A stretch of 64,000 nucleotides of DNA from Candidatus Undinarchaeales archaeon (GCA_030753015.1 JASMDC010000003.1:1-64000), one strand, 5' to 3'. Shown: positions 29,630 to 54,136, numbered from the stretch's first letter. Translations and numbers: made by a program. Notes: generated by a model not told the origin, from the letters alone.

Positions 29630-29725
29630 ACCCTATACCCGAGTTTTCCAAGCATGACCCTCTTTTTATAAACCTATTGGAGGGGCTTCCGGTCACCGCA
29701 TTAATCACGGACAAGAGAAAGATTA

Positions 29726-29932: not shown

Positions 29933-29972
29933 GCCACCACGAGGCCCCTTGAGATGAGCACCTGCACTCGCA

Positions 29973-34900: not shown

Positions 34901-35382
34901 ACGAGGTCCAGAGCACCATCGCCGGTGATATCACCTATGGTTGCCAGATCCCACGTGATGGTCTCGGCATCGGTCCATCGGAGCTGGGGATCGTAGGCCT
35001 CCACGGTTGGTGTATAGCTCCAGTGGACAGCACCCAGTCCGTCAAGCGCAACGATGTTCGGGAACACCTGGTCCCGTGTCGAGTAATAGAATAGGTCGCC
35101 TGCACGTGCGATGTCCGTAACGGCCGAAGAAGCGGCTAGGAACGCGACGCGCTCTCCTGATGCGTCGATGATGTGGACGCCGCTATCGGTCCCAATGGCG
35201 ATGCGGTCGTCCCACGTCTGTAACGTGGTTATGCTCCCTGATAGCCCGCTCGAGATGTGGGCAACAATGTCCTCGCCCGCGGTCACGATGGGGATGGCGA
35301 GCATGATGGTTACGAGCGCGATAGTCGCCCAAAGGGACCCGTGCGTCCAACTCTCGCTCACGTCACGTGAGTGCCGCTGCAC
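31939..35382 (-). CDS. Large membrane-anchored beta-propeller protein (PQQ-like / FG-GAP Ca-binding repeats)
   Basis: Signal peptide; many D-x-[DNT]-GDG-x-x-D loops alternating with G.TG...W blades; C-terminal Ig-like segment and TM. Start may be slightly downstream. Confidence 0.82.
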   Translation of the reverse strand: MQRHSRDVSESWTHGSLWATIALVTIMLAIPIVTAGEDIVAHISSGLSGSITTLQTWDDRIAIGTDSGVHIIDASGERVAFLAASSAVTDIARAGDLFYYSTRDQVFPNIVALDGLGAVHWSYTPTVEAYDPQLRWTDAETITWDLATIGDITGDGALDLVAASGSAVLLLNGITGELSWRFDAANDVFRIIATQDLSGDGWPDIAAGCQDGRVHLIDARSGKELWSIRAAEPLVLRDPRSDREMGTVTRSVWDIVPLGDSLVVSTEDGNVLLINGRAGRVEWNTTVLEYDALMLSRYYKGGMRGQSLSPTTPDMDNYFNLRIAIIPDIDGDGQEDIVAATWPGGGEQQQQNGQGYMGKKRLLVALSSRRGNTLWSRHDAGLQQVERLPVIGETLLMPTTSGMSRLWAANMTELAPYKPNMTLALDKSSLWVLPFGDGVVLASDRTDLVMLDMRGRVQWSYPRYAGLTYLTADLVGDENPDLLALSAERTNPQDNNDQGSSRLLFVMDGATHEQAWEYRVPIKDVLSGLTLQQVRLTDDMDGDGKRDILAFVQAPGDWDWGDQYGDRTRIVLISGATGTDIWRTPVADGTHYGTWNDIFKDPSIIDQRLGVDSERLKRLDWKRERTPEEEEERNQLRNAEERARSMRQEVKEREQNLRICKRVVAVDTLSDLNGDDVDDVLVSGWREVYVLDGLTGKPFLTRTNQAWSFQDPFKDGKEEEDRVKKLEWSFLENDRNVLRSLGDFNNDGIDELLLASWKEVLVLKSERSGSWRPLWRWSPEEANFNKENIRLVDDATGDGRPDIGVRVHRRDMPEQLIVLDSRFGKVVLTMDDDGSGGGRWVRDLDGDGADDLMQFKRWGPQGPELVVKQSGANMDGWRYPHPMETWMLDTLRIDNIEPATVVKDMDGDGVNELAVVATAMWQRDITVTFYSLVSGQEIDKVHLFKGRKDVDQFQPAVAVSTINDITGDGRRELAFTALVGREGGRPSPTLYVLDVATGRIVRELGIRGSGVFNMGDGRDIIVTSTAGDVYVVGADWDVPISSPSDGDEVHAGFDLTWQQQSNVITSVLVDGNVVVRTSSSSTFLDLPSGNHQVSLRTTDGFGGSTYSHVSVIVKRKVLAHWLINGIIVLSIVGYLGRRTYLYVRGAA

Positions 35383-35467
35383 TTTTAAAAAGACTCATAC
35401 GTGCGCTAGCGCCCCTTTTAACTAGCGAACGTCAGCAACGGTGCTGGTGTACGACCCTCTGGCGGCG

Positions 35468-35487
35468 CTCCAGTGGAAATAAGGGGG
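35468..35487 (+). promoter_or_regulatory. Isolated ORB-like box
   Basis: CTCCAGTGGAAATAAGGGGG in the divergent intergenic region. Confidence 0.55.
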
Positions 35488-35548
35488 TGTGACCCTGTTG
35501 CTCAAGATATACTAATCCATTTAACAGAGCACCGCTTTCCTCTTTCCG

Positions 35549-36724
35549 ATGCACACTGAACGGCGGGTCCAGACGCGCCCGCGCTTCTCCTTTTCAGCAG
35601 GGGAGCCCGTCACAGCGTCCGCAGCGCTGGGCTTGAAGGGCAAGCACCCGTCCGGAGCGCATCGTACAAAACACCTGGCAGCAACGATGTTCATAGGAGG
35701 ACGTTACCGTAAGGTGCTTGTCACCCTCTCACCGCACGCCCTGGTTATAGAGCGATGTGACCGGCAGGTCCGCCTCGTTGCGTGCGCTCCCCACGCCATC
35801 GAGCAGGGAGGTGAGGACACTCTGGACCATGATATCTGGACCGGCGAGGAGGCCATCGAACTGCTCCGGTCCGGCGCAGTGGACCGCTGTGTGATATCCC
35901 TTCACAACCGCGGTCTGCTCGACTTCAATCGCTTTCCCTCACAACCCTTCGTCCAGTACGGCCGCACGGTCCGGAATCCACCCTATCGCCAGCCTAATCC
36001 CTACCACGGTTCACTTGACGCGAAGGTTGTGCTCGACCTTCATGGTTTCAGGTCCGGGACCCATAGTCGCGGCATCATCCTCGGCATCGGGAGGGTCGAC
36101 GAACTGACAATGAGAGACAGCAGGTTCGTGGGGGCTGTAAGGAGCAGCGCATCCTTTGGAGCCAACCTCCTTATCAGGATAGCTCGCGAGGCTCTCCGGC
36201 GGAGCCCTGGGATGACGCTGGAGCTGCACGCTTCCCTTGACCTGGTACGGCTCCCCTGTACCGCGGGCAACGTCCCTCGCGTCGTTCTCACCGAAGAGCG
36301 CTTGGTAGAGATGGGATTCGTGAGCGGAGAGCTTGTCGCTCTCGGACTGATCCATGACCGCAGCGGTCGGGTCGCAGGGGTGGAAATATGTCGTGAGGCC
36401 GCGGACACCGACGACGAACTCGTAGTCGAGTCAGGTGATCGTGAACGAGTGGAGCTCCCACGAAAGCTCAAGGTGACGGAGCGGATCGACTTGAGCGGTC
36501 GGCACGTCTTCACGTTCACCGGGCGAGGATTCCGTATTCGTGATGGGAGCGCATTCCGTCGCTATCTCCCGGGATTGCGTAACTACACCTTTCGCTATCT
36601 AGCAAAGAGGGGTGTTGCTTGCGTCCAGGTCGAGCAGACCAAGGGAGTGCGAGAGAGTTTCGCTCAACGGCTATCTGGAGCAGGGTGCGTTTTCCGCGTT
36701 CCAGAGGGTCAACGCTGGATGTAG
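35549..36724 (+). CDS. Hypothetical cytoplasmic protein (possible AbrB/SymE-like segments)
   Basis: 391-aa ORF with TTTAA box upstream; no clear family. Confidence 0.6.
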   Translation: MHTERRVQTRPRFSFSAGEPVTASAALGLKGKHPSGAHRTKHLAATMFIGGRYRKVLVTLSPHALVIERCDRQVRLVACAPHAIEQGGEDTLDHDIWTGEEAIELLRSGAVDRCVISLHNRGLLDFNRFPSQPFVQYGRTVRNPPYRQPNPYHGSLDAKVVLDLHGFRSGTHSRGIILGIGRVDELTMRDSRFVGAVRSSASFGANLLIRIAREALRRSPGMTLELHASLDLVRLPCTAGNVPRVVLTEERLVEMGFVSGELVALGLIHDRSGRVAGVEICREAADTDDELVVESGDRERVELPRKLKVTERIDLSGRHVFTFTGRGFRIRDGSAFRRYLPGLRNYTFRYLAKRGVACVQVEQTKGVRESFAQRLSGAGCVFRVPEGQRWM

Positions 36725-39700
36725 GCATCGTAGTTGTAGTACTGACGTGCGCTGTAATAACTGCTGTAGTCAGAGTATGTTGGCGTCGCGGCCGCGGCCT
36801 GTGTCTGGGCAAGAGCGACCGCCGCCTCATCTTGTTTCCGCTTTCGGTATACAATGAGCACGAGGGTGAGCCCTATCAGGGTCACAACAGCGACGAGCGC
36901 GCCCACTGACGAGAGGAAGGACGACGCGTCCTCGTCACCGCCACCCCCGGTCACGACCTCGTCATCACCGCCATCGTCACCCCCATCAGAGCGTGCCCGC
37001 GGGGTCGCGGTGGCTGCTGTTCCCAAGGTGCGTCCGCCACCACCACCATCGTCACGGTCATTGCCAGTACGATGGTCCTTGGTATAGTCGAGCACCGTGC
37101 TGTCCGATCCACTCCCCCCGGTATCGGTATCGGCCCCCGTTCCGTTCCCGGGATCGGGTGACGGCGTGGGCGAGGGGGCCTCATCTTCCTCCTCTTCCTC
37201 CTTAGCAAAAACGTCGATCACCTTGCGGTCGTACCCCTTCAGCTCCATGTACTTGAGCAGGTCGTACCCTGCGGCCTTCTGTGCCCCTTTGTCCTGGTCC
37301 AGGAGATAGCCGGCCCGCTTGCGTCCCATGCAGCCTCCCAGACAGGCGGTGAGGTTAGCGGGCACCGACAGGCACTGATGGCACCGGCCGCATACACCCC
37401 GGTCCTCCTCCTCCGTGTAGACCTTCGCACATATGTCCCCAAGGAGCGCGTTCCCCACGCACTTCGCGACGCACGAATCCTGGCCCAGCGTCGTCACACG
37501 ACCTGCGCAGGAGGAGCACTGCATGCAGGCGCCCATGCACCCGTCGAGTTCAGGATGGTTACCGCAGAACCGAGCGCAGATGGCACCGAGCAGGCGGGAG
37601 CGGTCGACGCACCGTTCCACAAGGCATCGCCAGATCTCTGCAGGGCTCTTCCCTGTATCGCACAGTCGGCACTCGCGGCAGGAACCGTCGGTTATGTTGT
37701 ACTGTCGTGCCAGGGTGCTGCACAACCGCATCCGTTCCATGAACGACCGGATCATCTCCCGGATATGGCTATAGCACTCCTGCCCCCGCATGACGGCGAT
37801 GGCCTTGAGAGCGTACTTGATGGCCCGGATGTACTTCTCGCGCTCGAACTCCTTCTTGGCGTTCTCGATATGCCCACGCACCGCGGCCGCTTTGGAGTGG
37901 TCGCAGATGATGTCCTCGGTACCATCGCGTCCGCTGTAGGACAGCTCGTATAGCTCCTCCGCCTCCCTGATGCGCTCGATGGCCTCCTTGCGCAGAGCGT
38001 CAGGGTCCGTGTTGGCCGTGGGGGTGATGTACTCACCATGTTTGGAGTCCTGGTAGAGCGCGGCGTTCTTGAGCAGCTCGATGGCACGGTCCGCGTACCG
38101 TATGGCGTTACGGTACTCGGCCATCTCGTACTCATCCTCGGCCTTCTCGATGAGCTCCCACGCAACGATCTTGACCTCCTCGTTCGTGCTCTTGGCATGG
38201 AGCGCCTTGGCGGTCTCGATCCGCTGTCGTGCGAGCATAGCCAGCTCGTTCTGCTCCTCGCCTTCCAGACCGGACACCAGGCTCTCCAGGTACTCCTGGA
38301 GCTCGGGATCTGTGTCACGGGCCGCTTCCAAGGGATCCACCATCTTGTAGCAGCCGTCCCTCGTGGCCGTATTGGGGATCAGGTCGCATATTGTCCTTAC
38401 TCGGTCATAGGCCTCGTTGCACATGTCGATGACATCTATGAGCGGGTCCCCTTCCAGTCCGACGTTCTTGGCTCTCTTCCCTTTGTTGCATATCTTTGCT
38501 ACGGTGTTGAATGGAAGGTCGGTCTCTCGTTTGATGGCCTTCAGCTCCCGTTTCTTCGCTTTCTTGGCAGCATTGAGCAGGCAGCCGGACAGGCTTTCAT
38601 CGTCGATGACCGATAGGCAGATGGGCACGGACTCGTAGGGCGCCTTGGACATCTTAAGCTGGGCAATACCGGAGAAGCACGAGTCACGGATCTCCCGGAC
38701 GTTGTCTGGAGAGTGGGGGATACGTTCACATGCATCGATGGCTCTGGGGAATCCACCAAGGTCGTCACGGAACGCTACGTTAGTGGCCACCTGTGTGTAG
38801 CAGTTGCCACGCTCCATCGCCGAGGCGATCCAGGTACCACACACGTCCTCGGCCCTCAACGGTGGTCGGTTGGTGACCACGGCATTGAGCACGTCGTGAT
38901 AGCACTGATCACGGACATGGCGTCCGCGGTTCGTCGTAAGGATGGTGTTGATGCAGTCGCCGTTACCACAGTTGTCAGTGATGCAGGTGCCCGAGTAGTG
39001 CCAGCAGTTCTTTCCCCAGTCGCCGCACCCCTTGTCATTGTGCACGCACTTGGAGCGGAAGCATCCCTCGTCGATGCAGGGGACGTGACGCGCAGCATCC
39101 TTGTTGTAGTACATGGACGAATCCCATTCCTCGTCCTTGGCCTTCACTCTTGAGTTGATCTTGTGGCAGGTGCTCAAGGCCTTGGTGGTGTCAGCGTATC
39201 GCAGGGAGTAAGCTGATGAGCGGTAGCATTCATTGCGGTCGGCCCATAATGATTCAAGGCACTCGGTGTGGCAGTCGTCGCGGTGGCTTGCGGCGATGGC
39301 GTTCTTGTCGCAAGGATCATCGTCAGGGCACGTCACAAGGTTGGGATCACCTTTCTCGTCGCACTTCCATGGATCGGCCGCGCACGTGGTCCCGAAGTCG
39401 ATGATCCGCGTGTCGTAGGACGAGCATCCGCCCACGACGACGTCGGCAGCGATGTCGCCGTACAGCGTGCTTCCGAGAGTGTGATAACATTCGGTGCGCT
39501 TGTACACATAGGGGATGCGGGCACAGTCATCGAAGGCGTACCTGAAAAACTCCCTGTCCGCGAACCGACGCGACATGTCCTTGTAGCAGTTGGTCCTCCG
39601 CAGTAAGGAGCGGAAGTAGGTCCAGCCATTCTCGTAGCCCCACGTGAGCCAGTGGCGCTCATCCGGTTCAAGATCGCACGAGTCGCCTGTGTGGGTCCGG

Positions 39701-41745
39701 TGCTGCTTGTAGACCAGCTTGGGGCCGGGGCCCACGAGGCACTTGTCCCGCTTGTCCCTCTCTGAAGCGCGCCCGCATTCGAAAACGCCGAGGAAGAAGT
39801 CCGGATCATGAGCGTACCCTTCGTAGAAGATGGCGTTGCCCAGGACGCACCCATCCCATTCTTTAGCCCCCTTGGGAAGGCAGGGACGGAGCGTGGGCGT
39901 GCCTTGGCCCATGAGTTCCTCTACCCTGTTGGTGCAATGGGTCTGGATGCGGCTCTCCTCGAAATCAAATTTCTCGTGGTAGGCGATGGACGAGCGGTCG
40001 TATGTGAAGTCGTCCTCCGACCGGGGCATATAGCGTATCTTCTTGACGCACACCTCGTTCTCGCACCGCCCCTCGAAGTCGTCGCATTTGGTGGTGTCAG
40101 GACGGGATATGCACTCGAACGGCCGGGCGATGTCCACACAACGACCGTTGAGGCACGCACCCTCACCCGAGTCGCACGGCACACCGTTCGCCCACTCGCC
40201 GAGGTCCTCAAGCGCGTCATCCTCGTCCAAGGAGGGCTTCGCCTTGGTGACACGCGCAGTCGAGCACATGTCCTCGGGCTCCATGAGAAGAGGCACGCAC
40301 GTATTGTACCAGCAGAGGCCCGTACGATCGCCACAGGGTGCGCCATCGGCTCCCGAGGTGCAGTCCTCGTTCCCCTCCAGTACGGTCCGGATACAGGTCT
40401 CACCGAGGCAGATGCCGAATCCACGGTTGCATCTGTAGCCATCGGTCCCGGCACCTCGGCACTCCCGGTCGCGGGTTCCTGACTGGTCCACACAGGAACC
40501 GTACATGCACTTGCCACGGAAATAGTTACATGGTTGACTGTCCGTCTTTTGGCCGCACCCGTCGAACGGCGAGGCCAGCTCCAAGCAGATACCTTTGAAG
40601 CAGATGCCCAGAGCCGAGTTGCACCCCGTACCGTCCGCGCCACACGCCGCGCCCGGGACATGCTCAAGGCACCGCCCGCCGCCGCAGACACCGAGACCCC
40701 CGTAGCATCCAGCACCGTCGTCCTTGTCCCGACACTCGTCTCGGTACGGGAGGTCGAGCACGCACCATGCGTGCAGGCAGGTCCCCTTGCCCTTCTTGCA
40801 CTTCCTGCCGTTACCCTGTCCAGCGCACTCGTCCGGCTGAGGGAACAGTATCTCCAGACCCTTTTTCTGCCAGCAGATACCGCGTCCATCGGCCACCAGC
40901 TCGCCATCATCGAGCCCCTTGCCTTCGTTACCGCGCTTACACGTGAAGTCGAGCAAATTGTTGCCCCAAACAAGGGCCGCGCATTTCTCTGCGATGCACG
41001 TTCCGAACCCGCCGTTGCAGATGGAGCCATCCGCCTTGCCATGACACTCGTCGTTGTCAGGATTAACAGGGATGCATGGCCCGAGCAAGCAGACGCCCTT
41101 CTCGTTGTCGCAGGAGTCTCTGTCCCCCTTGAAGGTGCATCCGTCGTAAGGATCGATGATCTCCATACAGTGTTTCGCGTGGCACACACCGGTGTGTTTG
41201 GCACAACGCTGGCCGTCCGAACCGTCCCCACAATCGCCCGGCTCCTTCGCGATCGTGGCTCGGCAGGCCCCGGTGACACAGATCCCTTTACTATCACCGC
41301 AGGACTGTCCGTCCTCGCGTCCCGAACATTCCGTACCGGAGACGACGGTGATATTGGTGACCATGCCCGAGCAGATGTCGTACCCGGTCGATTCCTGGTT
41401 ATTGCGTTTGGTATGCTGGATGGCGACATATCGCGCAGCTGTAGCGTTGCGGAGGGTGTCCAGGATAACGTTGAGGATGCCTAACGCAGCATTCGTGTTG
41501 CCGATGTTCGCATAATACTTTACAGCCTCTGTACAGAACTCGTCTCGTGCGATCCCGGCCTGTACCCTGCAGCGCGAGCGGCAGCGGGGCCGAGCGGCTT
41601 CGGACTCGGAGATGCAGCTATCATAGCACGTACTGAGCTGGTCGGAGTAATACCCATTATAGTCCCAATTAATGTTAAAGAAGCCGACCGAAGGAGAGAG
41701 CACCAATATCAGCGCCAGAATGATCGCAACATGTCGTCGGACCAT
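36709..41745 (-). CDS. Giant Cys-rich membrane-anchored surface protein (1678 aa)
   Basis: Signal peptide, tandem C..DG..C...G.C...C repeats, C..I....RD.CY repeats, helical repeats, CxxCxxC block, Pro/Gly/Asp linker, TM, Tyr-rich tail. Confidence 0.85.
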   Translation of the reverse strand: MVRRHVAIILALILVLSPSVGFFNINWDYNGYYSDQLSTCYDSCISESEAARPRCRSRCRVQAGIARDEFCTEAVKYYANIGNTNAALGILNVILDTLRNATAARYVAIQHTKRNNQESTGYDICSGMVTNITVVSGTECSGREDGQSCGDSKGICVTGACRATIAKEPGDCGDGSDGQRCAKHTGVCHAKHCMEIIDPYDGCTFKGDRDSCDNEKGVCLLGPCIPVNPDNDECHGKADGSICNGGFGTCIAEKCAALVWGNNLLDFTCKRGNEGKGLDDGELVADGRGICWQKKGLEILFPQPDECAGQGNGRKCKKGKGTCLHAWCVLDLPYRDECRDKDDGAGCYGGLGVCGGGRCLEHVPGAACGADGTGCNSALGICFKGICLELASPFDGCGQKTDSQPCNYFRGKCMYGSCVDQSGTRDRECRGAGTDGYRCNRGFGICLGETCIRTVLEGNEDCTSGADGAPCGDRTGLCWYNTCVPLLMEPEDMCSTARVTKAKPSLDEDDALEDLGEWANGVPCDSGEGACLNGRCVDIARPFECISRPDTTKCDDFEGRCENEVCVKKIRYMPRSEDDFTYDRSSIAYHEKFDFEESRIQTHCTNRVEELMGQGTPTLRPCLPKGAKEWDGCVLGNAIFYEGYAHDPDFFLGVFECGRASERDKRDKCLVGPGPKLVYKQHRTHTGDSCDLEPDERHWLTWGYENGWTYFRSLLRRTNCYKDMSRRFADREFFRYAFDDCARIPYVYKRTECYHTLGSTLYGDIAADVVVGGCSSYDTRIIDFGTTCAADPWKCDEKGDPNLVTCPDDDPCDKNAIAASHRDDCHTECLESLWADRNECYRSSAYSLRYADTTKALSTCHKINSRVKAKDEEWDSSMYYNKDAARHVPCIDEGCFRSKCVHNDKGCGDWGKNCWHYSGTCITDNCGNGDCINTILTTNRGRHVRDQCYHDVLNAVVTNRPPLRAEDVCGTWIASAMERGNCYTQVATNVAFRDDLGGFPRAIDACERIPHSPDNVREIRDSCFSGIAQLKMSKAPYESVPICLSVIDDESLSGCLLNAAKKAKKRELKAIKRETDLPFNTVAKICNKGKRAKNVGLEGDPLIDVIDMCNEAYDRVRTICDLIPNTATRDGCYKMVDPLEAARDTDPELQEYLESLVSGLEGEEQNELAMLARQRIETAKALHAKSTNEEVKIVAWELIEKAEDEYEMAEYRNAIRYADRAIELLKNAALYQDSKHGEYITPTANTDPDALRKEAIERIREAEELYELSYSGRDGTEDIICDHSKAAAVRGHIENAKKEFEREKYIRAIKYALKAIAVMRGQECYSHIREMIRSFMERMRLCSTLARQYNITDGSCRECRLCDTGKSPAEIWRCLVERCVDRSRLLGAICARFCGNHPELDGCMGACMQCSSCAGRVTTLGQDSCVAKCVGNALLGDICAKVYTEEEDRGVCGRCHQCLSVPANLTACLGGCMGRKRAGYLLDQDKGAQKAAGYDLLKYMELKGYDRKVIDVFAKEEEEEDEAPSPTPSPDPGNGTGADTDTGGSGSDSTVLDYTKDHRTGNDRDDGGGGGRTLGTAATATPRARSDGGDDGGDDEVVTGGGGDEDASSFLSSVGALVAVVTLIGLTLVLIVYRKRKQDEAAVALAQTQAAAATPTYSDYSSYYSARQYYNYDAYIQR

Positions 41746-41754
41746 GAAGGAGCC

Positions 41755-44700
41755 TCACTCGAGCGGTTTGAACATGCAGTTGTCGCAGGTGCAGAGGTTG
41801 AACACGGCTGTACATCCAGACCTGATCTCGACAGAGCATTCGGGATTGCATCCATCGCACTCAATGGCCAGTCGGCACTGGTCGTACCGGGTCGTGGACA
41901 GTATACGCACCTTCTCCTCTCCACCGCCGCCGGGGCTTGCTCGTAAGCGCCATGTCCGCGCTACGGTGTCCAGCCACTCTGCACTATTGACATCAATCGC
42001 GTTGAGCTCAACGACATGGTCGTTGGGCTCGAGGATGAGCGAGCCACCACCCTCTATTTCCTGGGACGTGCGTCGTGCACGCGCCTCGAAGGTGGTCCGA
42101 AGCGTCTCGTCGTCACCACGAAAGATCTCCAAGTTCGTGAAGACCTCGCGATGTACCGTGTTCAGGTCAGTGTCGCGTACGATCAGCTCGATGTTCCCCT
42201 GGAAGTTCGTGCCCATGTCGTTGCGGAGCTTCGCCCGCAAGGTCACATCCTCTCCATCGTACACCGACTCCGTCATTCTTCCCCCGCTATCAGCGAAGTC
42301 GATGCCCGTGAGGGTAAGATAAGGATTATGCACGACAAGGGCCAGTTCGGGGAACCGCTTGGCATCAAGTACGATCTCAGTGTAAATGAGGGACGGATCG
42401 TTGCGGTCCTTGACGACCACGGTCACATTGATGAACCCTCCCGCCATGTAGGTCCCGATGGATCCCAGCATCCCGGTCTTTATGGCTACCGGCTTATACG
42501 GCTCGAGAGCAGGATAATCGTTGTTGAACGTACCGGAGATATCGGTGCCCTGGAACTCAGCGAGATTGGCTATGATGGAGACCTGCTTGGTATCTGAGTA
42601 GGAGGAAACCACTTCCAGGATCGCTTCCACCGAGTCGCCCGGGTAAGCGTCCGTCGACCGCAGGTCGTTGATAAAGAACGCCGCATCCATGACCGAGATT
42701 GTGTTCGGTTCGGGTACGAAGATGCGGGGCATGACCTCGGACTCGACACGGTTTCCGGCGAAGAGGAGCGCAGCGTCCGCGAGCAGCACTTCGTTCTGCA
42801 TGGCCGCCGTCACCTCAAGCTCGAGGGAGATGTGACGTCGTGTGTCCGGGGACACGGAAATATCAGGGATCGTGCGGCTGAGGAGCGTCTGGGTCGATGT
42901 CCGGACCGTCAGCTGGAGCTCGCCGTTTGTTAGCGGATCGAGATAGTCAGTAATCTCGGCACGGAGCGTCAGTTTCTCGCCGACCTTTGCCACCCGGACC
43001 GGCTCACCGTCCGCGTCGAGCCACTCAAGGGCGGAGATGGATGGCTTCGGCCTCTTTGAGACGACGACCTCGTTACCGATGGGCACCTCCTCCAGAACAC
43101 CCTGGCAGCAGTATCCGCTGCTGCTGGTCGACGTGTGGCATTCGTCGATTTCGCCGCTGCCCTGCTCGTCGCAGTAGTCCTCAAGGCGCTCGATGGTGTC
43201 CTCGGACAACGCGGGCTCGCACCGAGCATCCTCCAGCACGAGCGGGAACAGGCCCGTTCGGCAGGCACAGCGCTTGCTGCTCGGCAGGCAGTACCCATCG
43301 GTACCGTGCTCTTGGAGACAGAGCGGCGAACAGGTATCGTCGACGGGGACCTCGCCATCGGGACACTCCTCGAGGTTGTACACGCACGAGCTATCACAGC
43401 ACAGACCCCGTCCCTCGTCGCATGCCACGCCATCGTTGCCAGCACATACTTCCTCGCCGCCGCCTTCACACGACTCTCGCTCGAGGAAGCATCGTCCGTT
43501 GCAGCACAGACCATCGCCGTCGGAGCACTCATCACCGTCATCGATACAGTCCTCTTCTTCCTCGATGACCTCCTCACAGCTCTCGCGGTCGGCGGTGCAC
43601 CACCCTTCGCAGCAGATGCCGTGATTGCCCGAGATCGTGTTGCACTGCGACTCATCCTCGCGGAGCTCACAGCAGGATGCCACGTTCTCGCAAGAGTCAT
43701 CGCAACAGATTCCGAACATGCACTGGCGCCCGTCCCGGACCCCGAGGCACTCCTCATCGATCTCCTCTTCACCCTCGAAGGGCAGCTCCTCCTCTCCCCC
43801 CTCATATGGTCCGCCGAGGGCGTCCGATGAAGCGGAGTAGAACAGACAGTCCGTGTCGTGCCACATGAAGTCGCCGGGGGAGGATGTCTTGAGGTTGTAA
43901 AGAGCGCAGCGGGTGATGATGCCGTACCGCCAGATGTACTTCTCGTAGTCGGGGGAGATGTCGTCCTCCTTGAACTGGTTCCAGGAGCAGGCGCGGTTGA
44001 TGATCATCTCCAGAGATGACGAGCGGGAGGCGTCATTGTAGAAGGACTTGGTCCACATCGACATCTCGTCAAGCTTCTCCTCGTAGTCCTCGAGGCTCCA
44101 CGACTCGCTACCGCCCGTGAGGCCGCCCTTGCCCACGTCGACCGAGTCGGCGGCCTGCCAGGACGCCTTCAGCCCCTCCAGTTCTTGTCGGATGTCGTTG
44201 TCGCAGGAGCCCGACACGGTGCAGGTGCGTGCCTTCTCCCGTAGCTTCTTGACCCACATGAGACCGGTCTTGAGGATCCCGCCGTCCTTGACCAGCTCGT
44301 TAGTGTATTTAGTTAGCTGGTTGACCTTGAAAGTGTAGGTCATGGGATCGTGGGTGTCACCGATCGAGAATAGGTCCGGTTCCACGGAACAGATGTCGTC
44401 GACGATGCCCGTGCGTTTCCCGCACTCCTTGGCCACCGACCATGTCGGGATCTGGAACGGGATGCCTATAGGTGAGGAGAATGGCTTGTTAATCTGGCAC
44501 TGGACGGGGATGAGCATGGAGGCAAGTGACGAGATCCAGCACACGGTGCAGGAGTTCCACCACAACTCGCCCGCCATCGGCGGGTATGGCGCATAAAGTG
44601 GTATCCCGAACAGGCACATCTCTCCGATGCCATGCTGGAGCAGTTCCTTGCCCTGCGCGAACACGCAGAACCCGGTCTGCACGCCCATGCCCACTTCGAT

Positions 44701-47700
44701 CACGACCAGGTTATTGAGTATGTTCTCATAGAATGTAATCGCGTTCTCGTAATACTTCACAGCGGTGTTGTAGTAGATGTAGAGGTTCGGATGCGCCTTC
44801 TCGGGACAGGCGATGAAATGCTTCATGAACTTGACGTCGCATGCCACGCCCGAGAGACAGAACGCCATGCACACGGCCTCGCCAGCAAGCTCCGCACCCA
44901 TCTGGCCCCACGAACCGCCACCGCCTGTGAGCTGGGAACCGACACCGCCGGGTGCGAAGAGCGCCGTGCACGTCATACGGATTCCATAGAGCGTAAGGAT
45001 GGCCTCGAGCTTACTGTCACCGGACTTGTCGCACCCCTCGAAGCAGGCCAGCCGCGCGGCCACGTCCTCGACGAAAGCGCACTGGCCCTTGCACCCTTGG
45101 CAGTCATCCATACAACCCCCCTTATCATAGGCAGAGAAGCACACCGCATCGCAGATGCCGTTGGTGATCTCTACCGCAAGGTCGTCGATGCACTGGGCCG
45201 CGCACTGCTTGAGGTCAGGGGCGGTCAGCGGGCACATCGTGCACTTCTGGCACACCTCCATGCACCCGGGTTCTCCCCCGCACAGCTCCTGACAGATGTC
45301 GAACAGGATGCCGTTTACACAGTCCTTTGTCCCTTCGAGGAGACACTCTTTGATTTCCCCGCCCTCCTTCCCTGCGCACTGGACGTTGGATCGGCAGCAG
45401 GTGATGCATGTCAGCGGATTGGGGAAGTTCGAGCAGAAGGCGTCGCACTCGATAAAGAGCGACTGTGCACCGATACAACCACCTAGACAAGCGAGGCGGT
45501 CACCTGCAGGTCGCCTGCAACACATACCGCATCCGAGGCACACCTCTTTGCACGACTCGTACGTGCCCTCGTCCCGCCCCTCACACGCTTGCTCGCACAG
45601 GCCGGTTATGAGAGGTGGGCACACACAGTCGAGGAAGCAGCGGTCCCGAGAGCGTTTCGTGTCCTTGAATAGGCACTCCGTACAGCCGCAGCATTGGTCG
45701 AAGCACGGGCCTGACGTCTCGCCCTGGCATACCCACGGGCACGACGCTTGGCAGATGTCCAGGGCGTTGATGCATCCCTCGTTCACTAGGCACTCACGTA
45801 CCTTGCGGGCACCACCCGCCCACAGGCACTTGGTGCATCCGAGGCACGCACCGATGTCGATACCCGCGCTGGCCTCGAGCTCCTCGCAGATGTTTGTGAT
45901 GATGATCCCCGACTTGTGGAAGAGACAGCCCGTGATGCACTCGGTCAGCTGCGCCGGCTCCATGTCACCGTTGCATCCGTACGGACATCCCTGGCAGACG
46001 ACGCAGGTTGACACGCAGCGGGTGAGCTCTTGGCCGGAGAGTCCCAGTTGGTCCTGGCAGACGGTGAGGCAGGGGATCTCCAGTGGATTCCAGCAGCTCT
46101 TCAGGCAGTTGTTGCGCTTCTCCTTCTCCTCGATGTCATAGCAGGCGAGGCATGAGTCGCACACATCGTAGCATGACTTCATCTTGAGGTTGTTGGAATA
46201 GTCCGCACAGTTCGGTGTGAGCTCGATGAGGCATTCCCCGTGCATGCAGATGCCCCGCCTGGTGGTGAGGTCGTCGAAGCACACCTTTCCGTCGGCCCCA
46301 TCCTGTTTGCATACGGATGGGACCTTGATGGTATGAGCTATACAGGCTGGGGGCCGCCCGCCCGGGTAGACGCACACACCGCTACCCGCCGAGCACCACA
46401 CCTTACGGCCACGCTCCTGCCGCTGCTGGGCAACGGAGCACTCCTCGCGCCCGTTCCCTCCCAGCTCCATGCACTTTCCCTTGAGGCACACGTGCCCGGT
46501 CGTCTCGCACAGGTACCCGTCCGGCGCGGGCTTCGTCTTCTTTGTCTTGGGGTCCTTGTAGGTGCATCCACTGGACTTGCCGTAGTGGCACTCGCCACCG
46601 AAGCAGAACCCGCTGGACCCGGACTTCTCGGGATCGGTGCAGGGCCGCCCTTCGCTGTTGGGCGCTTTACATGTGATAGGTATCTTTCGCGCGCGACGCA
46701 CGCACGCCAGCCCCCCACCGAACATCCGCTTGCAGTACTGGGGGGGTTTCTTACCTTTGCACTCGGACGGAGTGTTGGGCAGCATCAGGCATGTGCCCTT
46801 AGAGCGGTAGCAAGTAGAGCCCCCGCCGGTCGCTAGTTCGCAGCTCCACTGGCCGTTCTTCTCCGTACACACCCCCTTCTGGCCGCCCGAGGCGGTGCAT
46901 GTCATGCCCGATGTCCCAGACTTGCCGCAGTCGGCCTGGGTGAGGACCTTGCAGTACGCGCCCACTTCTACACCCGAGCTGAGGCCCGCCTGTACCCCTT
47001 CCATGCATACGCCCTCGGCGCCATCCGCGGTACGACAGGCGTGACCAGAGGTCAGCATAGTGCACTGGTCCTCCACGGCCTGGTACTTGCCTGCGCACTC
47101 TTGATAGTTATAATCGGCCAGCTTCATGCACCTGCTCTGGAAGCAGATGCCATCCTTGGAGCATCTGTCACCATCGGCCTTGCCGGTGCACGGATTCTTC
47201 GTGGCGGGCAGCACGGTCTGCACGAGCGAGTCGAGCTTGTCGCCCAACGCGTCCACTGAGCATCCGATGGGCGTATGACAAGCTATCTTGCACCCGAGCT
47301 CGAAGGCACACTTCTGGAGGCACGTCGTACGCTCCTCCTTCGGGCCGAAGAAGCAGAACGTACACTTCTGACAGAGGTCTGTGCACACACCCACCTTCAT
47401 GCTTGGTTCGCACTGTGGATCGGAAATCGTGACCTCAGAGTAGGTCTCGGTCACCGTAGTAACGCCCGACTCCGGATCGTAGTCCTCGTACTTACTGTCC
47501 TGCTGATATCCAAGGTGGATGTCGCCTCCGAAGAGGTTGCTATCACCGAATGCAACATCAGCGAAGTTCTCGCACGCGATGGTGCACACCGCGCCCCCCA
47601 GGCAGTTCATAAGTAGGCATCGCCCGACCGCCTCGCCCCAGCTCTCGTCACCCTGTGGCTTGGCGAGCAGGCAGTACGCGCAGTTCTGGCAGATGAAGTT

Positions 47701-48954
47701 ACCGCGGTCCTCGCAATTGTCCTTATTGATCTCGACCCCCATGAACTCTACTTTATCCTTCATGTTCTTGCACATGACGTTCTTGACGATGAGCGGGCAA
47801 ACCTCGTACTGGAGTATGCAGGTGATGGTGCAGTTGAGGATCTTTTCCCCGTCCCAGATGAACTTCTTCTTCTTCACGTCGTAGTAGAAACCCTCGTTGA
47901 TACACTCGCCGCACTTGTAACAGATATCGAGGCAGGATGACTCATCGATGTCCACCGGCTCGTCGGACATCTTCTGGATGAGGGCGTCACCACCAGTGCA
48001 GATACCGGCACACATGGGGCCGATGATGAGCGCGCGGACGCCACAGGCCATGAAGCAGTTGGTTTGTTCCTGCTTACCATCCACGATGATGCACTCGCAA
48101 CAGTCCTCCACCAGTGCGTTGCACTCGTACTCCACCTGCACCTGCAGCGCCTTCTTCTGTGGGATGAAAGAGAATATCCCCTCCATCATGTTCTCGCAGA
48201 CCTCCCCCAGGAGTGGGGCTGCAAGCGTCTTGCACATGCATTTGCTGATGAGGCACTTGTTGAAGACCTCTTTCCGTCCCTTCGAGGTCTTGGGGCCACC
48301 TGAGGTGGGTATCAGCGTCAAGAGGCACTGACCACAGTTCTTGCATACGTTGAAGAGCAGTTCGTTATTACTCCGACAGGGCGCCTCGCATCCCATGATG
48401 TCCTCACAGACCTCGGAGAGGATTAGGTCACCTAGACAATGCTCGACCCAGCAATTGCTCTCCTTCGAATCACCGCCTGAGCCCGAGTCCGTGATGAAGC
48501 AGTCCAGGCACCCGCAACCGATCTCAACGCACTCGTCCGTGCGGACCCTGGGTATCCACGAGGATATGGCGTACTGGCAGGGGGGCTTGAGGATCATGTC
48601 GCAAAAGGGCTTGCCCAGGCACCGGATAAGGCAGGAAGTTCTCTTGCCCTCGGGCTCCAGGGCGCACTTCACGCACTCGATACGGGTGCAGAGCTTAGTG
48701 AGGAAGGGATCGCCACCGCACAGCTCCTTGCACAGGGGATTGATGATGGCCAGCAGCTGACGGATGACGCATTCCTGAAGACATTCACTGCGGGCTCCCG
48801 AGTCACTGATGCGAATGCACTCACCGCACTCGTAGCACATGTCGAGCATCTCGTCGCCCTTGATCGTGAAGTACTTACCAGAGGATGCCGTTGTGGGAAG
48901 GAGGAAGAGAAGGAACAGTACGAGCACCGCCATCCTCCCTCGTAAAGCTACCAA
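41755..48954 (-). CDS. Giant Cys-rich secreted protein (2399 aa)
   Basis: Signal peptide, many CxxCxxC...C..C helical repeats, DG..C..G.C(C) repeats and C-terminal beta-rich Ig/CARDB-like domains; no clear TM anchor. Confidence 0.85.
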   Translation of the reverse strand: MVALRGRMAVLVLFLLFLLPTTASSGKYFTIKGDEMLDMCYECGECIRISDSGARSECLQECVIRQLLAIINPLCKELCGGDPFLTKLCTRIECVKCALEPEGKRTSCLIRCLGKPFCDMILKPPCQYAISSWIPRVRTDECVEIGCGCLDCFITDSGSGGDSKESNCWVEHCLGDLILSEVCEDIMGCEAPCRSNNELLFNVCKNCGQCLLTLIPTSGGPKTSKGRKEVFNKCLISKCMCKTLAAPLLGEVCENMMEGIFSFIPQKKALQVQVEYECNALVEDCCECIIVDGKQEQTNCFMACGVRALIIGPMCAGICTGGDALIQKMSDEPVDIDESSCLDICYKCGECINEGFYYDVKKKKFIWDGEKILNCTITCILQYEVCPLIVKNVMCKNMKDKVEFMGVEINKDNCEDRGNFICQNCAYCLLAKPQGDESWGEAVGRCLLMNCLGGAVCTIACENFADVAFGDSNLFGGDIHLGYQQDSKYEDYDPESGVTTVTETYSEVTISDPQCEPSMKVGVCTDLCQKCTFCFFGPKEERTTCLQKCAFELGCKIACHTPIGCSVDALGDKLDSLVQTVLPATKNPCTGKADGDRCSKDGICFQSRCMKLADYNYQECAGKYQAVEDQCTMLTSGHACRTADGAEGVCMEGVQAGLSSGVEVGAYCKVLTQADCGKSGTSGMTCTASGGQKGVCTEKNGQWSCELATGGGSTCYRSKGTCLMLPNTPSECKGKKPPQYCKRMFGGGLACVRRARKIPITCKAPNSEGRPCTDPEKSGSSGFCFGGECHYGKSSGCTYKDPKTKKTKPAPDGYLCETTGHVCLKGKCMELGGNGREECSVAQQRQERGRKVWCSAGSGVCVYPGGRPPACIAHTIKVPSVCKQDGADGKVCFDDLTTRRGICMHGECLIELTPNCADYSNNLKMKSCYDVCDSCLACYDIEEKEKRNNCLKSCWNPLEIPCLTVCQDQLGLSGQELTRCVSTCVVCQGCPYGCNGDMEPAQLTECITGCLFHKSGIIITNICEELEASAGIDIGACLGCTKCLWAGGARKVRECLVNEGCINALDICQASCPWVCQGETSGPCFDQCCGCTECLFKDTKRSRDRCFLDCVCPPLITGLCEQACEGRDEGTYESCKEVCLGCGMCCRRPAGDRLACLGGCIGAQSLFIECDAFCSNFPNPLTCITCCRSNVQCAGKEGGEIKECLLEGTKDCVNGILFDICQELCGGEPGCMEVCQKCTMCPLTAPDLKQCAAQCIDDLAVEITNGICDAVCFSAYDKGGCMDDCQGCKGQCAFVEDVAARLACFEGCDKSGDSKLEAILTLYGIRMTCTALFAPGGVGSQLTGGGGSWGQMGAELAGEAVCMAFCLSGVACDVKFMKHFIACPEKAHPNLYIYYNTAVKYYENAITFYENILNNLVVIEVGMGVQTGFCVFAQGKELLQHGIGEMCLFGIPLYAPYPPMAGELWWNSCTVCWISSLASMLIPVQCQINKPFSSPIGIPFQIPTWSVAKECGKRTGIVDDICSVEPDLFSIGDTHDPMTYTFKVNQLTKYTNELVKDGGILKTGLMWVKKLREKARTCTVSGSCDNDIRQELEGLKASWQAADSVDVGKGGLTGGSESWSLEDYEEKLDEMSMWTKSFYNDASRSSSLEMIINRACSWNQFKEDDISPDYEKYIWRYGIITRCALYNLKTSSPGDFMWHDTDCLFYSASSDALGGPYEGGEEELPFEGEEEIDEECLGVRDGRQCMFGICCDDSCENVASCCELREDESQCNTISGNHGICCEGWCTADRESCEEVIEEEEDCIDDGDECSDGDGLCCNGRCFLERESCEGGGEEVCAGNDGVACDEGRGLCCDSSCVYNLEECPDGEVPVDDTCSPLCLQEHGTDGYCLPSSKRCACRTGLFPLVLEDARCEPALSEDTIERLEDYCDEQGSGEIDECHTSTSSSGYCCQGVLEEVPIGNEVVVSKRPKPSISALEWLDADGEPVRVAKVGEKLTLRAEITDYLDPLTNGELQLTVRTSTQTLLSRTIPDISVSPDTRRHISLELEVTAAMQNEVLLADAALLFAGNRVESEVMPRIFVPEPNTISVMDAAFFINDLRSTDAYPGDSVEAILEVVSSYSDTKQVSIIANLAEFQGTDISGTFNNDYPALEPYKPVAIKTGMLGSIGTYMAGGFINVTVVVKDRNDPSLIYTEIVLDAKRFPELALVVHNPYLTLTGIDFADSGGRMTESVYDGEDVTLRAKLRNDMGTNFQGNIELIVRDTDLNTVHREVFTNLEIFRGDDETLRTTFEARARRTSQEIEGGGSLILEPNDHVVELNAIDVNSAEWLDTVARTWRLRASPGGGGEEKVRILSTTRYDQCRLAIECDGCNPECSVEIRSGCTAVFNLCTCDNCMFKPLE

Positions 48955-49035
48955 AACTTTCCCCTCAGGCGAGACGCAAAACAGCTCTCGCTGACCAGTA
49001 TAGGATTATTCATTTGCACGCTTTAAACCTTTGGT

Positions 49036-50031
49036 TCACGAGCGCGAAGGGGGGTCTGTATGGGCGGAATAACCGTCGGTCCCGGCGAGCGCTTCGGAAG
49101 TACTCCCGTCGGCACCCACGACACGCACGGGACCGCGTGTGACAAGGCCTATGTCCGCTGACCTGATGCCTCGTTCGGCAAGTGCCTCCTTCGCATCGGT
49201 GGCATCATCAGCTGTACAGAACGCGATCAGTGCCCCTGTTGATGATGTCGTACAGGGATCGATGTTGAACGCCCCCAACACTTTAGCCACGTCAGGATCT
49301 ACGATCAGGGCGCCCTCCTGCAGATCGGCCCCAAGCCCCGTGGCCACCCTCATCTCATCGAGTGCACCAAAGAGCCCGCCCTCAGTAAGGTCGTGCATGC
49401 AGACCGCCCAAGGACCAAGCAGGTGTGCCTCTGCCACACAGGTCGCTTCCCTTACTGTTCCTCGAAGGATCCCTGCACGCTCGGTACCCAGGACCGACTC
49501 GATGGATTCCTGTCGGCTCAAGGCGAGGTGGCACGCGGTCTCGCCGCCAAGCCCCTTGATGAGCAGGATATGCATCCCGGGACGGATGTTCGCGGGGGAT
49601 AGGAGCCGTTCGGTGAATCCCAGGACCGTGGTGACAACCACAGGCTCCGCCAGAGCGGGATAGACACCGGAGTGACCACCGATGATGGAGATGCCCAGGT
49701 CACGACAGGCCGTATCCATTTGTGAGGTGATGGTATCCAGCACCGCTACGTCTGATTCCGGAGGGAGGAGTATGTCCGAGACCAGATACTGTGGTGTGGC
49801 CCCGAACACGGCAACATCGCTGGCGGAATAGTGGACCGCTAGATAGCCCAGATGGTCCAGCGACACCCCTAGTGCAGGATCGCTGGCGATGACGAGGAAA
49901 CGGTCACCAAGGTCCAACGCACAGGCATCGTGTCCGGGGGCAGGGGGCGCTGCCAACGCGTCCGCCGGCGCACCGAGCCTTCCGAGCACGTAACGTGCCA
50001 AAAGGTCGGGGGGGAGCTTTCCCACGTCCAC
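49036..50031 (-). CDS. AIR synthase-related (PurM/HypE/ThiL superfamily) protein
   Basis: GKLPPD.L, G.DAC, ASDP, SDVAVFGATP, IIGGHS, MHDLTEGGL.GAL.EM, STGALI. Confidence 0.87.
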   Translation of the reverse strand: MDVGKLPPDLLARYVLGRLGAPADALAAPPAPGHDACALDLGDRFLVIASDPALGVSLDHLGYLAVHYSASDVAVFGATPQYLVSDILLPPESDVAVLDTITSQMDTACRDLGISIIGGHSGVYPALAEPVVVTTVLGFTERLLSPANIRPGMHILLIKGLGGETACHLALSRQESIESVLGTERAGILRGTVREATCVAEAHLLGPWAVCMHDLTEGGLFGALDEMRVATGLGADLQEGALIVDPDVAKVLGAFNIDPCTTSSTGALIAFCTADDATDAKEALAERGIRSADIGLVTRGPVRVVGADGSTSEALAGTDGYSAHTDPPSRS

Positions 50032-50098
50032 AGTCCCCTGACCCACGCAAGATATATAAGGGCGGGGGAGGGCGAGGCATTGGCAGGGGACGTAGATA

Positions 50099-50863
50099 GT
50101 GTACGACATGCTGTTCGATGACGGGTACAGGGTGGATGCCCTGGTGACCGATTTCGACAGCACGCTCACCGTCAATAACACGACACCCGGTGTTCTGGAG
50201 ATCATCTACCGACATGCAGAGGAACCTGACACGACCCGCGAGGAGATGGGCGAGCTAGTTGGCGCATACTTCGCAGAAAGGCGGGAGGCCATCGAGGGCG
50301 GAGGGAACATGGAAGAGATGCTCGAACGCTGGAGCCGGGTCGAGCGCAAGTACTCGGCCATCATAGCATCCTACTTCACGGGCGTCACACGGGAAGAGAT
50401 GAAAGAGGAGGGGTATAGCGTAGAGCTCCGCGAGCACGCGGGGCAGGCGGTGGAACATCTTAGAGAAGCCGGCGTGTCCGTTGCTGTCGATACGAACAAC
50501 TGGTCCTCTTCACTGGTAACTGCAGCACTTGAGGATCGCGTGTCCGTGGACGACGTCTACGCGAACACCCTTGTGTACGGGGACGACGACGCATGCACGG
50601 GCGAGATGATTTTCGACAACGTCGATCCCCTGGCGAAGCGCGATGCGTTGCTCGATTACAAGCAGAAGAGCGGTGCACGACAGGTTGCCTATGTCGGTGA
50701 CGGCCTCAACGACCTTGCCTGCATGGCGGCAGCGGACATCGCTTTCGCCATCAAGCCATCGGACGAGCTCTTGGACGCCATTCAAGACTATGGTCTTGAG
50801 GACCAGGTCAGGGTAGTCGAGTCCTGGGATGAGATCGAGTTAACTTTGCGCACCGACAAGTGA
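50099..50863 (+). CDS. HAD-IB family phosphatase (phosphoserine-phosphatase-like)
   Basis: DFDSTL motif I, YAN.L, K, YVGDGLND motif IV. Start 50099 or 50108. Confidence 0.87.
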   Translation: MYDMLFDDGYRVDALVTDFDSTLTVNNTTPGVLEIIYRHAEEPDTTREEMGELVGAYFAERREAIEGGGNMEEMLERWSRVERKYSAIIASYFTGVTREEMKEEGYSVELREHAGQAVEHLREAGVSVAVDTNNWSSSLVTAALEDRVSVDDVYANTLVYGDDDACTGEMIFDNVDPLAKRDALLDYKQKSGARQVAYVGDGLNDLACMAAADIAFAIKPSDELLDAIQDYGLEDQVRVVESWDEIELTLRTDK

Positions 50864-54117: not shown

Positions 54118-54136
54118 CCTGATACGGGGAACTACC

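Follow-up and report, generated by a model that had tools for sequence, protein, structure and literature searches.

Two adjacent genes for giant cysteine-rich proteins

The DNA analysed here, hereafter the window, is a stretch of 64,000 nucleotides (nt) from a Candidatus Undinarchaeales archaeon (GCA_030753015.1, JASMDC010000003.1:1-64000) and makes up the opening 64 kb of a contig of 155 kb (C51; other contigs are designated in the same way) in a metagenome-derived assembly of 3.85 Mb and 117 contigs, with a completeness of 98.9% and an estimated contamination of 5%. Open reading frame (ORF) listing, translation and a hydropathy scan place two giant genes next to each other on its minus strand: gene A (41755..48954), which starts with TTG and encodes a presumably secreted product of 2399 amino acids (aa) without membrane anchor, and gene B (36709..41745), which starts with ATG and encodes a predicted type-I membrane protein of 1678 aa. 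The TGA stop of A is followed by 9 nt and then by the ATG of B. An archaeal TATA-box-like sequence, TTTAAA, occurs 68 nt 5' of the A start (49022..49027, minus strand) and may represent the promoter of the unit, and GAGGGG is located 6 nt ahead of the TTG. On the 3' side of B, a convergent 391-aa ORF without family match (35549-36724, plus strand) overlaps its end by 16 nt. Because of the 9-nt gap, the TATA-like box 5' of A and the convergent gene after B, the two genes look like a two-gene unit and, judging from this layout, are probably transcribed as one.

Cysteine accounts for 223 of the 2399 residues of A (9.3%) and for 115 of the 1678 residues of B (6.85%), versus a genome mean of 2.06% over 3064 naively called ORFs. 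All genome ORF statistics given in this text rest on that caller, which selects the longest ORFs from 100 aa upwards and resolves overlaps in a greedy manner. The hydropathy scan detected an N-terminal hydrophobic segment in each protein, at residues 1-29 in A (Kyte-Doolittle (KD) maximum 2.35) and 1-27 in B (KD maximum 2.30), and one further transmembrane (TM)-like segment in B, with a scan range of 1606-1636, a KD maximum of 2.87 and the motif RKRK after it; no second TM-like segment was detected in A. Since both N-termini are hydrophobic, A and B are predicted to be exported, in which case A would be secreted and B anchored as a type-I protein. N-glycosylation sequons number 2 in A versus 9.9 expected, a deficit from which no conclusion was drawn as sequons are only mildly depleted across the Cys-rich class of this genome (0.90 vs 1.16).

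Shared repeats and domain layout

A and B have two types of Cys-rich repeat in common (all features of the two genes given below are on the minus strand). The first, a helical 6-Cys repeat (HCR) with a period of about 50 aa, displays C-x3-C-x2-C-x2-C on one predicted helix and C-x3-C on the next. Hidden Markov model (HMM) searches located 14 units in A, in two arrays of 7 (residues 26-578, 47221..48879, and residues 918-1325, 44980..46203), and three in B (residues 1342-1496, 37258..37722) that are homologous to those of A (BLASTP E = 1e-7). An HMM derived from these units retrieved 100 units in 9 proteins; in the genome, HCR is confined to A, B, two tandem paralogs on C36 and, weakly, one ORF on C27. 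Adjacent units overlap by one C-x3-C, so that they form continuous arrays rather than separable peptides, and because of this common motif the disulfide connectivity could not be derived from Cys co-loss among 54 units. The AlphaFold2 model of A 520-1340, obtained from an 8-row alignment, has a mean predicted local distance difference test (pLDDT) of 56.7 and is all-helical at 920-1310, with pLDDT 60-80 over the second array. Foldseek returned no match at E <= 0.001 for this model of the HCR and beta repeats and VIA-align none above Z 6.1, which does not in itself make the fold new. Look-alikes of HCR, all below significance, were albumin and alpha-fetoprotein (Foldseek E about 0.1) and Tim9/10, VBP-8, nigellin and saposins (Z 4.4-5.0).

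The second type is a 4-Cys repeat of about 32 aa, C-x8-C-x6-C-x4-C with DG, found as 11 HMM domains in B 138-572 (40030..41334) and recurring in a 2845-aa ORF on C25. Copies in A were detected at 589-614 (independent E-value 1.7e-6; 13.9 bits, versus 5.5 bits for the best of 200 shuffles of A) and at 884-909, within a region of diverged repeats (A 589-915, 46210..47190) that AlphaFold2 models as beta-hairpins with pLDDT 55-80. This region varies most among orthologs, Cys losses being concentrated at 631-828. Further along, A 1721-1960 (43075..43794) comprises an acidic linker followed by "G-x-CC-x3-C" repeats related to the 4-Cys repeat of B, as indicated by a BLASTP match of A 1741-1866 to B 371-492 (E = 4e-4); diverged "CC" versions of the repeat span 1734-1858, and the Cys of this segment are invariant across 9 orthologs and paralogs.

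The remainder of A starts with a signal-peptide-like N-terminus at residues 1-25 (48880..48954), recognized by hydropathy and made of RGR, a hydrophobic core and TASS/G, which would be cleaved off. Residues 1330-1720 (43795..44967) correspond to a conserved central domain, poor in Cys but with abundant Trp and Tyr, with many invariant columns and a model pLDDT of 20-40. Three predicted immunoglobulin (Ig)-like beta-sandwich domains follow at 1970-2342 (41929..43047) and then an 8-Cys tail at 2355-2399 (41758..41892), C-x5-C-x2-C-x3-C ... C ... C-x-C-x2-C, modelled as beta strands with pLDDT about 80-85. The tail is conserved in 20 paralogs, always at the extreme C-terminus, with five Cys columns invariant and three nearly so. 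In the model of A 1330-2399, built from a 9-row alignment, the mean pLDDT is 55.4 and only 1969-2399 is confident (80-90). With this C-terminal part Foldseek retrieved macroglobulin-domain arrays (E about 1e-10, with low TM-scores), and VIA-align superposed the Ig-like domains at Z 10-13, with a root-mean-square deviation (rmsd) of 1.8-2.8 over about 100 residues, on glycosidase Ig-like domains, a Wzt carbohydrate-binding domain, RbmA, adhesin repeats and alpha-2-macroglobulin. The match of the sandwich with Wzt (6o14_A; Z 12.4, rmsd 2.3, 109 residues aligned) is tied with those of many other Ig-like domains, and the Wzt family PF14524 scored 13.6 bits (E 0.068) at A 1973-2026, short of its Pfam gathering score of 30.4. 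No Pfam match to CARDB (PF07705), Ig or cadherin was found in A or in the 20 C-terminal modules of its kind described below; ESM Atlas gave a CARDB lead for the C-terminal 435 aa at 0.85, under the 0.9 level, and a PDB profile search with the module returned only the S-layer Sap domain (E 0.15). A complex prediction with two copies of the last Ig-like domain plus tail (20-row alignment) scored 0.00 against a mark of 0.42, in a set without control runs, and is silent on self-association.

B likewise begins with a signal-peptide-like N-terminus (residues 1-21, 41683..41745, by hydropathy). Between its 4-Cys array and its HCR units lies a central region with scattered Cys and a helical, TPR-like end (590-1340, 37726..39978), for which only sub-threshold TPR and Arm matches were obtained; one source labels a B fragment "TPR repeat protein". 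The HCR units are followed by an acidic, Gly/Thr/Pro-rich stalk without Cys (1497-1609, 36919..37257), a predicted single TM helix taken as 1610-1633 (36847..36918) and a Tyr-rich, putatively cytoplasmic tail (1634-1678, 36712..36846) of a type carried by about 17 other membrane proteins of the genome; no Cys occurs in residues 1501-1678.

The initial annotation of this DNA had described two giant Cys-rich ORFs 9 nt apart with signal peptides, two repeat types common to both and, in B, a linker with a TM anchor. The ORFs, their junction, the hydrophobic segments, the repeats and the stalk with its helix were all recovered, a cytoplasmic tail being added to B, and export remains a prediction from the N-termini. 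It also had A ending in Ig-like domains without an anchor; the domains and the lack of an anchor hold, but the end of the protein is the 8-Cys tail.

Conservation and distribution

Nothing significant was found for A or B in Pfam, NCBIfam or PDB sequences, so that the full-length match to a characterized family that the initial annotation had set against its own proposal did not appear. A word-indexed search of 5.8 billion clusters retrieved three orthologs of A, at 92, 72 and 46% identity, and one of B (83%) besides its own record. An exhaustive HMMER search of 1.84 billion representative proteins with A 925-1960 gave 3 proteins at E <= 0.001, family members only. For B 590-1340, none of the 3148 candidates of the word-based homolog search scored, and ESM Atlas (590-1345) gave no usable match. 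Among 41 genomes (its own, a congener, 15 of the same class and 24 other archaea), only its own and the congener matched A, and a scan of viral contigs with A returned nothing. HCR, the 4-Cys hairpin and the module of three Ig-like domains plus 8-Cys tail are, on these sequence comparisons, new domain families that are lineage-restricted in every search done, although giant exported repeat surface proteins as such are already a known kind.

The cysteines of both proteins are constrained far more strongly than the remaining residues, as judged from the alignments. In four orthologs of A, 212 of the 223 Cys are invariant versus 37% of all positions; against the ortholog with 46% identity, A keeps 214 of 223 Cys and 827 of 2176 other residues, and a joint loss of Cys 816 and 828 was seen in one ortholog. 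B and its 83% ortholog have all 115 Cys in common, versus 1280 of 1563 other residues. Identity to the congener reaches 91% for A (residues 2-488) and 90% for B (769-1678), which is on a par with that of the large subunit of DNA polymerase D (PolD; 91%) and indicates that A and B are not fast-evolving.

Several observations bear on whether the two genes stay together. In the congener, the C-terminal part of B runs off the end of the PolD-bearing contig and the N-terminal part of A off the start of another contig, which is compatible with the same A-B arrangement without proving it; a genome-contig scan recovered the congener only. Members of the A-type and B-type clusters have equal longest contigs in four assemblies (341,699; 237,917; 124,575; 73,594), the one of 124,575 carrying both the A ortholog with 72% and the B ortholog with 83% identity, and a 2,995-bp NCBI record holds B and A fragments with consecutive locus tags. 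Two metagenome-contig scans found no contig encoding the distant relatives, whose synteny is thus not directly readable.

Cysteine-rich proteins across the genome

A and B belong to a large set. The genome has 99 ORFs of at least 1000 aa, 43 of which contain at least 5% Cys; at this level, 70 of the 1581 ORFs of at least 300 aa are Cys-rich and represent 93,157 of 1,168,030 residues (8.0%), and 52 of these 70 have a hydrophobic N-terminus. A Pfam scan of 20 other Cys-rich giants left 14 without family and assigned Kazal domains to 2, Dictyostelium CTDC repeats with CWB2 to 2, Laminin_G_3 to 1 and FixG_C to 1. The Kazal or CTDC/CWB2-bearing giants, at C36:13408-17775, C73:111281-114982, C21:83351-88645 and C64:98-4282, thus contain modules typical of eukaryotes. 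The eukaryote-like character proposed earlier for A and B is therefore seen at the level of the genome, but A and B themselves have neither eukaryotic nor other relatives. The most extreme Cys-rich giant is located outside the window on the same contig (C51:104057-116449, minus strand): this ORF of 4130 aa contains 15.4% Cys, begins with a hydrophobic segment and matches no Pfam family.

The last 420-430 aa or so of A constitute a module common to 20 giant ORFs (1066-2845 aa), always in C-terminal position. When its profile was run against 17 genomes of the phylum, 20 full-length copies were found here, compared with about 22 in the congener, and the remaining 15 genomes had none. The TM helix with Tyr-rich tail of B also recurs: a crude filter returned 24 ORFs, of which about 17 are convincing and 7 are Cys-rich, or 8-9 if two more TM-anchored Cys-rich ORFs with Tyr-containing tails are included. 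On C73 (again with a 9-nt gap), C38, C74 and C40, a giant gene is likewise paired with a Tyr-tail gene on the same strand. On otherwise unrelated membrane proteins, some Cys-rich and some not, a C-terminal TM helix with a Tyr/Gly/Gln-rich tail is found, for example, at C29:213695-214423, C43:37782-38486, C59:3010-5094 and C73:108317-111271. A 9-nt spacing between consecutive giant genes is seen at three loci (C36:28957/28967, C73:111271/111281 and 41745/41755 in the window).

Probable disulfide formation

Seven Thioredoxin_4/DsbA-like domains above cut-off were found in four N-terminally anchored proteins, three of them tandem, with CPFC or CPY(C/S) sites. In this genome Thioredoxin_4 has 9 matches and in the congener 6, versus 0-2 in the 15 other genomes of the phylum. 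The DsbA-like loci (C92:124-2001, C63:4403-6688, C59:176-2290, C29:195483-197585 and C82:8797-9720) have 1-2 domains behind a Pro/Thr-rich linker, and some of the encoded proteins themselves carry Cys-rich tails after the DsbA domains.

We infer that the cysteines of A and B form structural disulfides. Their predicted exported location, their regular, even-numbered arrangement in modules on predicted helices and hairpins, and the near-absolute conservation of Cys all point to this, as do the low His content and the absence of haem or iron-sulphur (Fe-S) signatures detailed below, the expansion of exported DsbA-like proteins and a marine habitat that is oxic.

Occurrence in marine samples and RNA libraries

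The stretch was recovered as near-identical DNA in 20 public runs from 12 studies, 16 of which hold at least half of the sampled words; the sources are all marine or seawater, plus one hydrothermal-vent metagenome. In two of the DNA runs, from different studies, contigs diverge from the window at 45183 and at 48855, both within A, with identical loose sequence. This pattern may reflect a variant within the population or a junction with a paralogous gene.

In each of two metatranscriptome libraries, produced by two studies, six contigs were found; they are identical to the window except for one mismatch and one 1-nt deletion. All 12 contigs fall within A or B and none in the flanks compared (1.4 kb and 1.3 kb), and 3 of the 12 extend beyond the stretch used for finding the runs. 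These runs have no cover at 35300-36800 and 47825-50300, which is not evidence of silence. The contigs lend weak support to transcription of A and B.

A putative disulfide-braced coat and its alternatives

The reading we favour, with confidence evenly divided for and against, is that A and B are co-transcribed, disulfide-stapled surface or matrix proteins, B anchored and A secreted, that take part in a disulfide-braced coat or matrix. Behind its signal peptide, B would then expose some 1,590 aa of ectodomain (the 4-Cys array, the central region and three HCR units) on an acidic stalk of about 110 aa, held by the TM helix and the Tyr-rich tail, and A would be released from the membrane once exported. 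The body of A would consist of two rods of helical hairpin repeats, with three disulfides per repeat, arranged around the variable beta-hairpin region and the conserved central domain. Its last 430 aa or so (three Ig-like domains and the 8-Cys tail) may act as a common surface-retention or assembly device, also present on 19 other giants, with retention achieved either by glycan binding via the Wzt-like sandwich or by disulfide exchange via the tail. Disulfides would be formed extracellularly by the expanded membrane-anchored DsbA-like oxidoreductases, and A and B with about 70 other Cys-rich exported proteins would build a covalently braced coat or matrix contacting particles or other cells. 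What the sequence data establish directly are the genes with their architecture and conservation, the paralog family, the DsbA-like set and the occurrence in marine samples; export, disulfides, surface retention, any contact between A and B and an adhesive role are all deductions from these features.

Several points weigh against this model. Both AlphaFold2 models are of low confidence overall (mean pLDDT 55-57) and derive from shallow alignments of 8-9 rows, and no domain of A or B has relatives with known roles in Pfam, NCBIfam, PDB, HMMER or word-based searches. The DsbA/VKOR-type oxidases that the initial annotation had suggested searching for are present as an expanded exported DsbA-like set, but the VKOR/DsbB re-oxidases (PF07884, PF02600) had 0 matches in the genome while controls matched; Erv1 was not found either, a search that is uninformative since the control matched 0 of 14 control genomes. 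A non-homologous re-oxidase may serve the DsbA-like proteins. Most members with the C-terminal module of A occur in tandem with each other and not with an anchored partner, indicating that the module needs no B-like protein. The RNA data consist of contigs only, may include DNA carry-over and come from runs chosen for holding the stretch. Finally, A and B are conserved to the degree of housekeeping genes, which is more in keeping with a structural coat than with an adhesin that evolves fast.

A more far-reaching version, which we consider improbable, extends the model to the whole set: the 70 or so exported Cys-rich proteins would form a covalently cross-linked matrix similar to the extracellular matrix of eukaryotes, in which the module of three Ig-like domains and 8-Cys tail polymerises or tethers the giants through intermolecular disulfides, as the cystine knot of mucins and von Willebrand factor (vWF) does, the TM helix with Tyr-rich tail anchors, and A and B act as a secreted and anchored pair joined via HCR.

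It seems similarly doubtful that A and B constitute a dedicated two-part apparatus for host or prey contact, in which secreted A docks on anchored B and acts together with neighbouring pilus-like genes. The pairing is suggested, at the sequence level, by the 9-nt spacing, by HCR being limited in the genome to A, B and two or three paralogs, and by the co-occurrence of orthologs on equal-sized contigs in four assemblies and under consecutive locus tags on the 2,995-bp record; yet the C-terminal module of A is found on 19 proteins without a B-like neighbour, and divergence is at the housekeeping rather than the arms-race level. DPANN-type archaea are known for living attached to hosts, and the class relatives of this archaeon are small-genome archaea of that type, but a 3.85-Mb genome that is 98.9% complete does not correspond to a reduced symbiont. 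As for the pilus, a link with the pilin array, which the initial annotation had raised as a possibility, is not supported: at 52428-62039 (plus strand), 3.5 kb away, there are 11 consecutive ORFs, each with one N-terminal hydrophobic helix, several after RRG or KRG and some with 4-5% Cys, but they lie on the opposite strand beyond two unrelated genes (AIR-synthase-like and HAD hydrolase) and matched neither a pilin family (Pfam at E <= 1, NCBIfam at E <= 0.1) nor any other family of these two databases, prepilin peptidase and ATPase not having been searched for.

We regard as less probable still a secreted arsenal, with A and perhaps B serving as carriers or polyprotein precursors of small disulfide-rich inhibitor, antimicrobial hairpin or toxin modules directed at other cells or at enzymes instead of forming a structural coat. 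Kazal protease-inhibitor domains do occur in 2 of the 20 scanned Cys-rich giants, and the beta-hairpin region of A is the most variable among orthologs. The HCR look-alikes include plant alpha-hairpinins and saposins, but these weak matches (Z 4.5-5) are under any meaningful threshold, and the overlap of HCR units argues for continuous arrays instead of separable peptides. Moreover, B is predicted to be anchored in the membrane, no toxin or peptidase family match was obtained in Pfam or NCBIfam, and no processing sites were noticed between units, although these were not systematically searched for.

Metal binding, which the initial annotation had retained as an alternative, is very unlikely, as are the related redox functions (Zn, Cu or Fe-S binding, metallothionein-like sequestration, extracellular electron transfer or a thiol buffer). 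What would speak for them is the very dense occurrence in A of CxxC (30), CxxxC (42) and CC (10), and the C-x2-C-x2-C spacing, which we take to be reminiscent of Fe-S ligand spacing. However, Pfam gave no Fe-S (Fer4-type), cytochrome or metallothionein family at E <= 1 in A or B; CxxCH occurs 0 times in A and once in B, not as the repeated motif of multihaem c-type cytochromes, and His makes up only 0.9% of A. The Cys form even-numbered sets in regular predicted helices and hairpins, and the proteins are presumably exported into a mostly oxic water column by a cell with expanded exported DsbA-like oxidases.

Lastly, that A and B are not real genes, whether as chance ORFs in GC-rich DNA or as an assembly artefact, is hardly credible. 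The sole indications of it are that A starts, unusually, with TTG and that the assembly is metagenomic, its contamination being estimated at 5%. Against it stand the length of the open frames (7.2 kb and 5.0 kb), orthologs that keep 96% of Cys even at an identity of 46%, identical DNA assembled independently in many studies, and archaeal core genes on the same 155-kb contig, those in the window being thermosome, Cdc6, the PolD small and large subunits, CofE and ScpA/B.

Other features of the window and of the lineage

On the 3' side of B and on the same strand, 31939-35382 encodes an FG-GAP/PQQ beta-propeller protein of 1147 aa, of which Cys makes up only 0.2%; it would be a second large exported protein, with a Cys bias reversed relative to A and B. 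Beyond it are genes for an ABC ATPase (30911-31939, minus strand) and an ABC-2 permease (29973-30977, minus strand). The GC content dips to 0.43-0.48 at 26000-30000, a segment in which the PolD gene has its 3' end and an ORF of 295 aa without family match is located, and a DDE transposase gene is located at 18187-19899 (plus strand). A 482-aa ORF at 10039-11487 (minus strand), with 4.6% Cys, a hydrophobic N-terminus and no family match, is probably a further member of the Cys-rich exported set.

With respect to the lineage, the genome (3.85 Mb) and that of the congener (3.6 Mb) stand against 0.6-1.2 Mb in the 15 others of this class and phylum. The PolD large subunit is closest to those of the small class genomes, with 49-55% identity versus 38-48% elsewhere, and public labels are in conflict, the organism appearing either as "Candidatus Undinarchaeota archaeon" or as "Methanopyri archaeon".

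Relation to known systems and significance

Of the systems compared, giant Ig-domain surface proteins and adhesins of archaea and bacteria (the matches comprise RbmA, Cpe0147 and SpaP, from bacterial adhesins and biofilm scaffolds) resemble A most directly in being very large, exported and repeat-built, with tandem Ig-like domains (Z 10-13), and in forming paralog families with a variable body and tandem gene arrays. A and B differ from them by their 7-9% Cys, two new Cys repeats, a new 8-Cys tail and the lack of a Pfam Ig, CARDB or cadherin match. They also differ from the hypervariable Ig-domain module of Thermococcales (PMC8416519), a further example of this kind, in that they are not hypervariable between congeners.

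The likeness of A and B to mucin/vWF-type matrix proteins and to the surface protein families of Giardia is one of analogy. As far as sorting devices are concerned, the C-terminal module of A is carried by 20 exported proteins of a single organism that have little else in common, in the manner of the C-terminal domain of the type IX secretion system, PGF-CTERM/archaeosortase and LPXTG, which are C-terminal sorting or retention domains on variable cargo; unlike these, it is about 430 aa long and has no TM segment, sorting motif or family match, a cognate sorting enzyme not having been searched for. In eukaryotes, gel-forming mucins and vWF are giant, secreted and Cys-rich, and their extreme C-terminal Cys-rich domain makes intermolecular disulfides in a covalent extracellular matrix. 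A is comparable by size, predicted secretion, Cys content and the position of a Cys-rich domain at the extreme C-terminus, but A and B show no VWD, C8, TIL or cystine-knot match at E <= 1 and have other Cys spacings and predicted folds; in the 20 C-terminal modules, CTCK, VWD, C8 and TIL were all absent at E <= 0.01. The variant-specific surface proteins of Giardia are a CxxC-rich family of type-I or exported proteins whose ectodomains vary while the C-terminal end is conserved. A and B have no homology to them in Pfam, are 5-10 times larger and give no sign of antigenic switching, and the conserved end is here either the three Ig-like domains with the 8-Cys module or the TM helix with the Tyr-rich tail. 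Finally, antiparallel helices bearing C-x3-C are known in the twin-CX3C small Tim proteins, alpha-hairpinins, saposins and serum albumin; HCR, with C-x3-C motifs on predicted helices, may be comparable but departs from them by its 6 Cys per 50 aa, its C-x3-C-x2-C-x2-C helix, its continuous arrays of 3-7 units and the lack of any sequence relation.

Giant extracellular proteins rich in disulfides are characteristic of the matrices of eukaryotes and, to our knowledge, are rare in archaea; a literature search for archaeal Cys-rich giants or a described large-genome relative, supplements not included, gave nothing relevant. Here, a widespread uncultured marine archaeon devotes about 8% of its coding residues to Cys-rich proteins, and a large-genome sister of a DPANN-type group, if it is one, would be notable in itself. 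If the reading of A and B as parts of a disulfide-braced coat is true, it would provide a new model of the archaeal envelope and of oxidative folding, in which DsbA domains occur in tandem without a known re-oxidase, as well as new compact disulfide-stapled repeat scaffolds, and it would hint at the way of life of a lineage with a genome of 3.8 Mb among DPANN-type genomes of 0.6-1.2 Mb.

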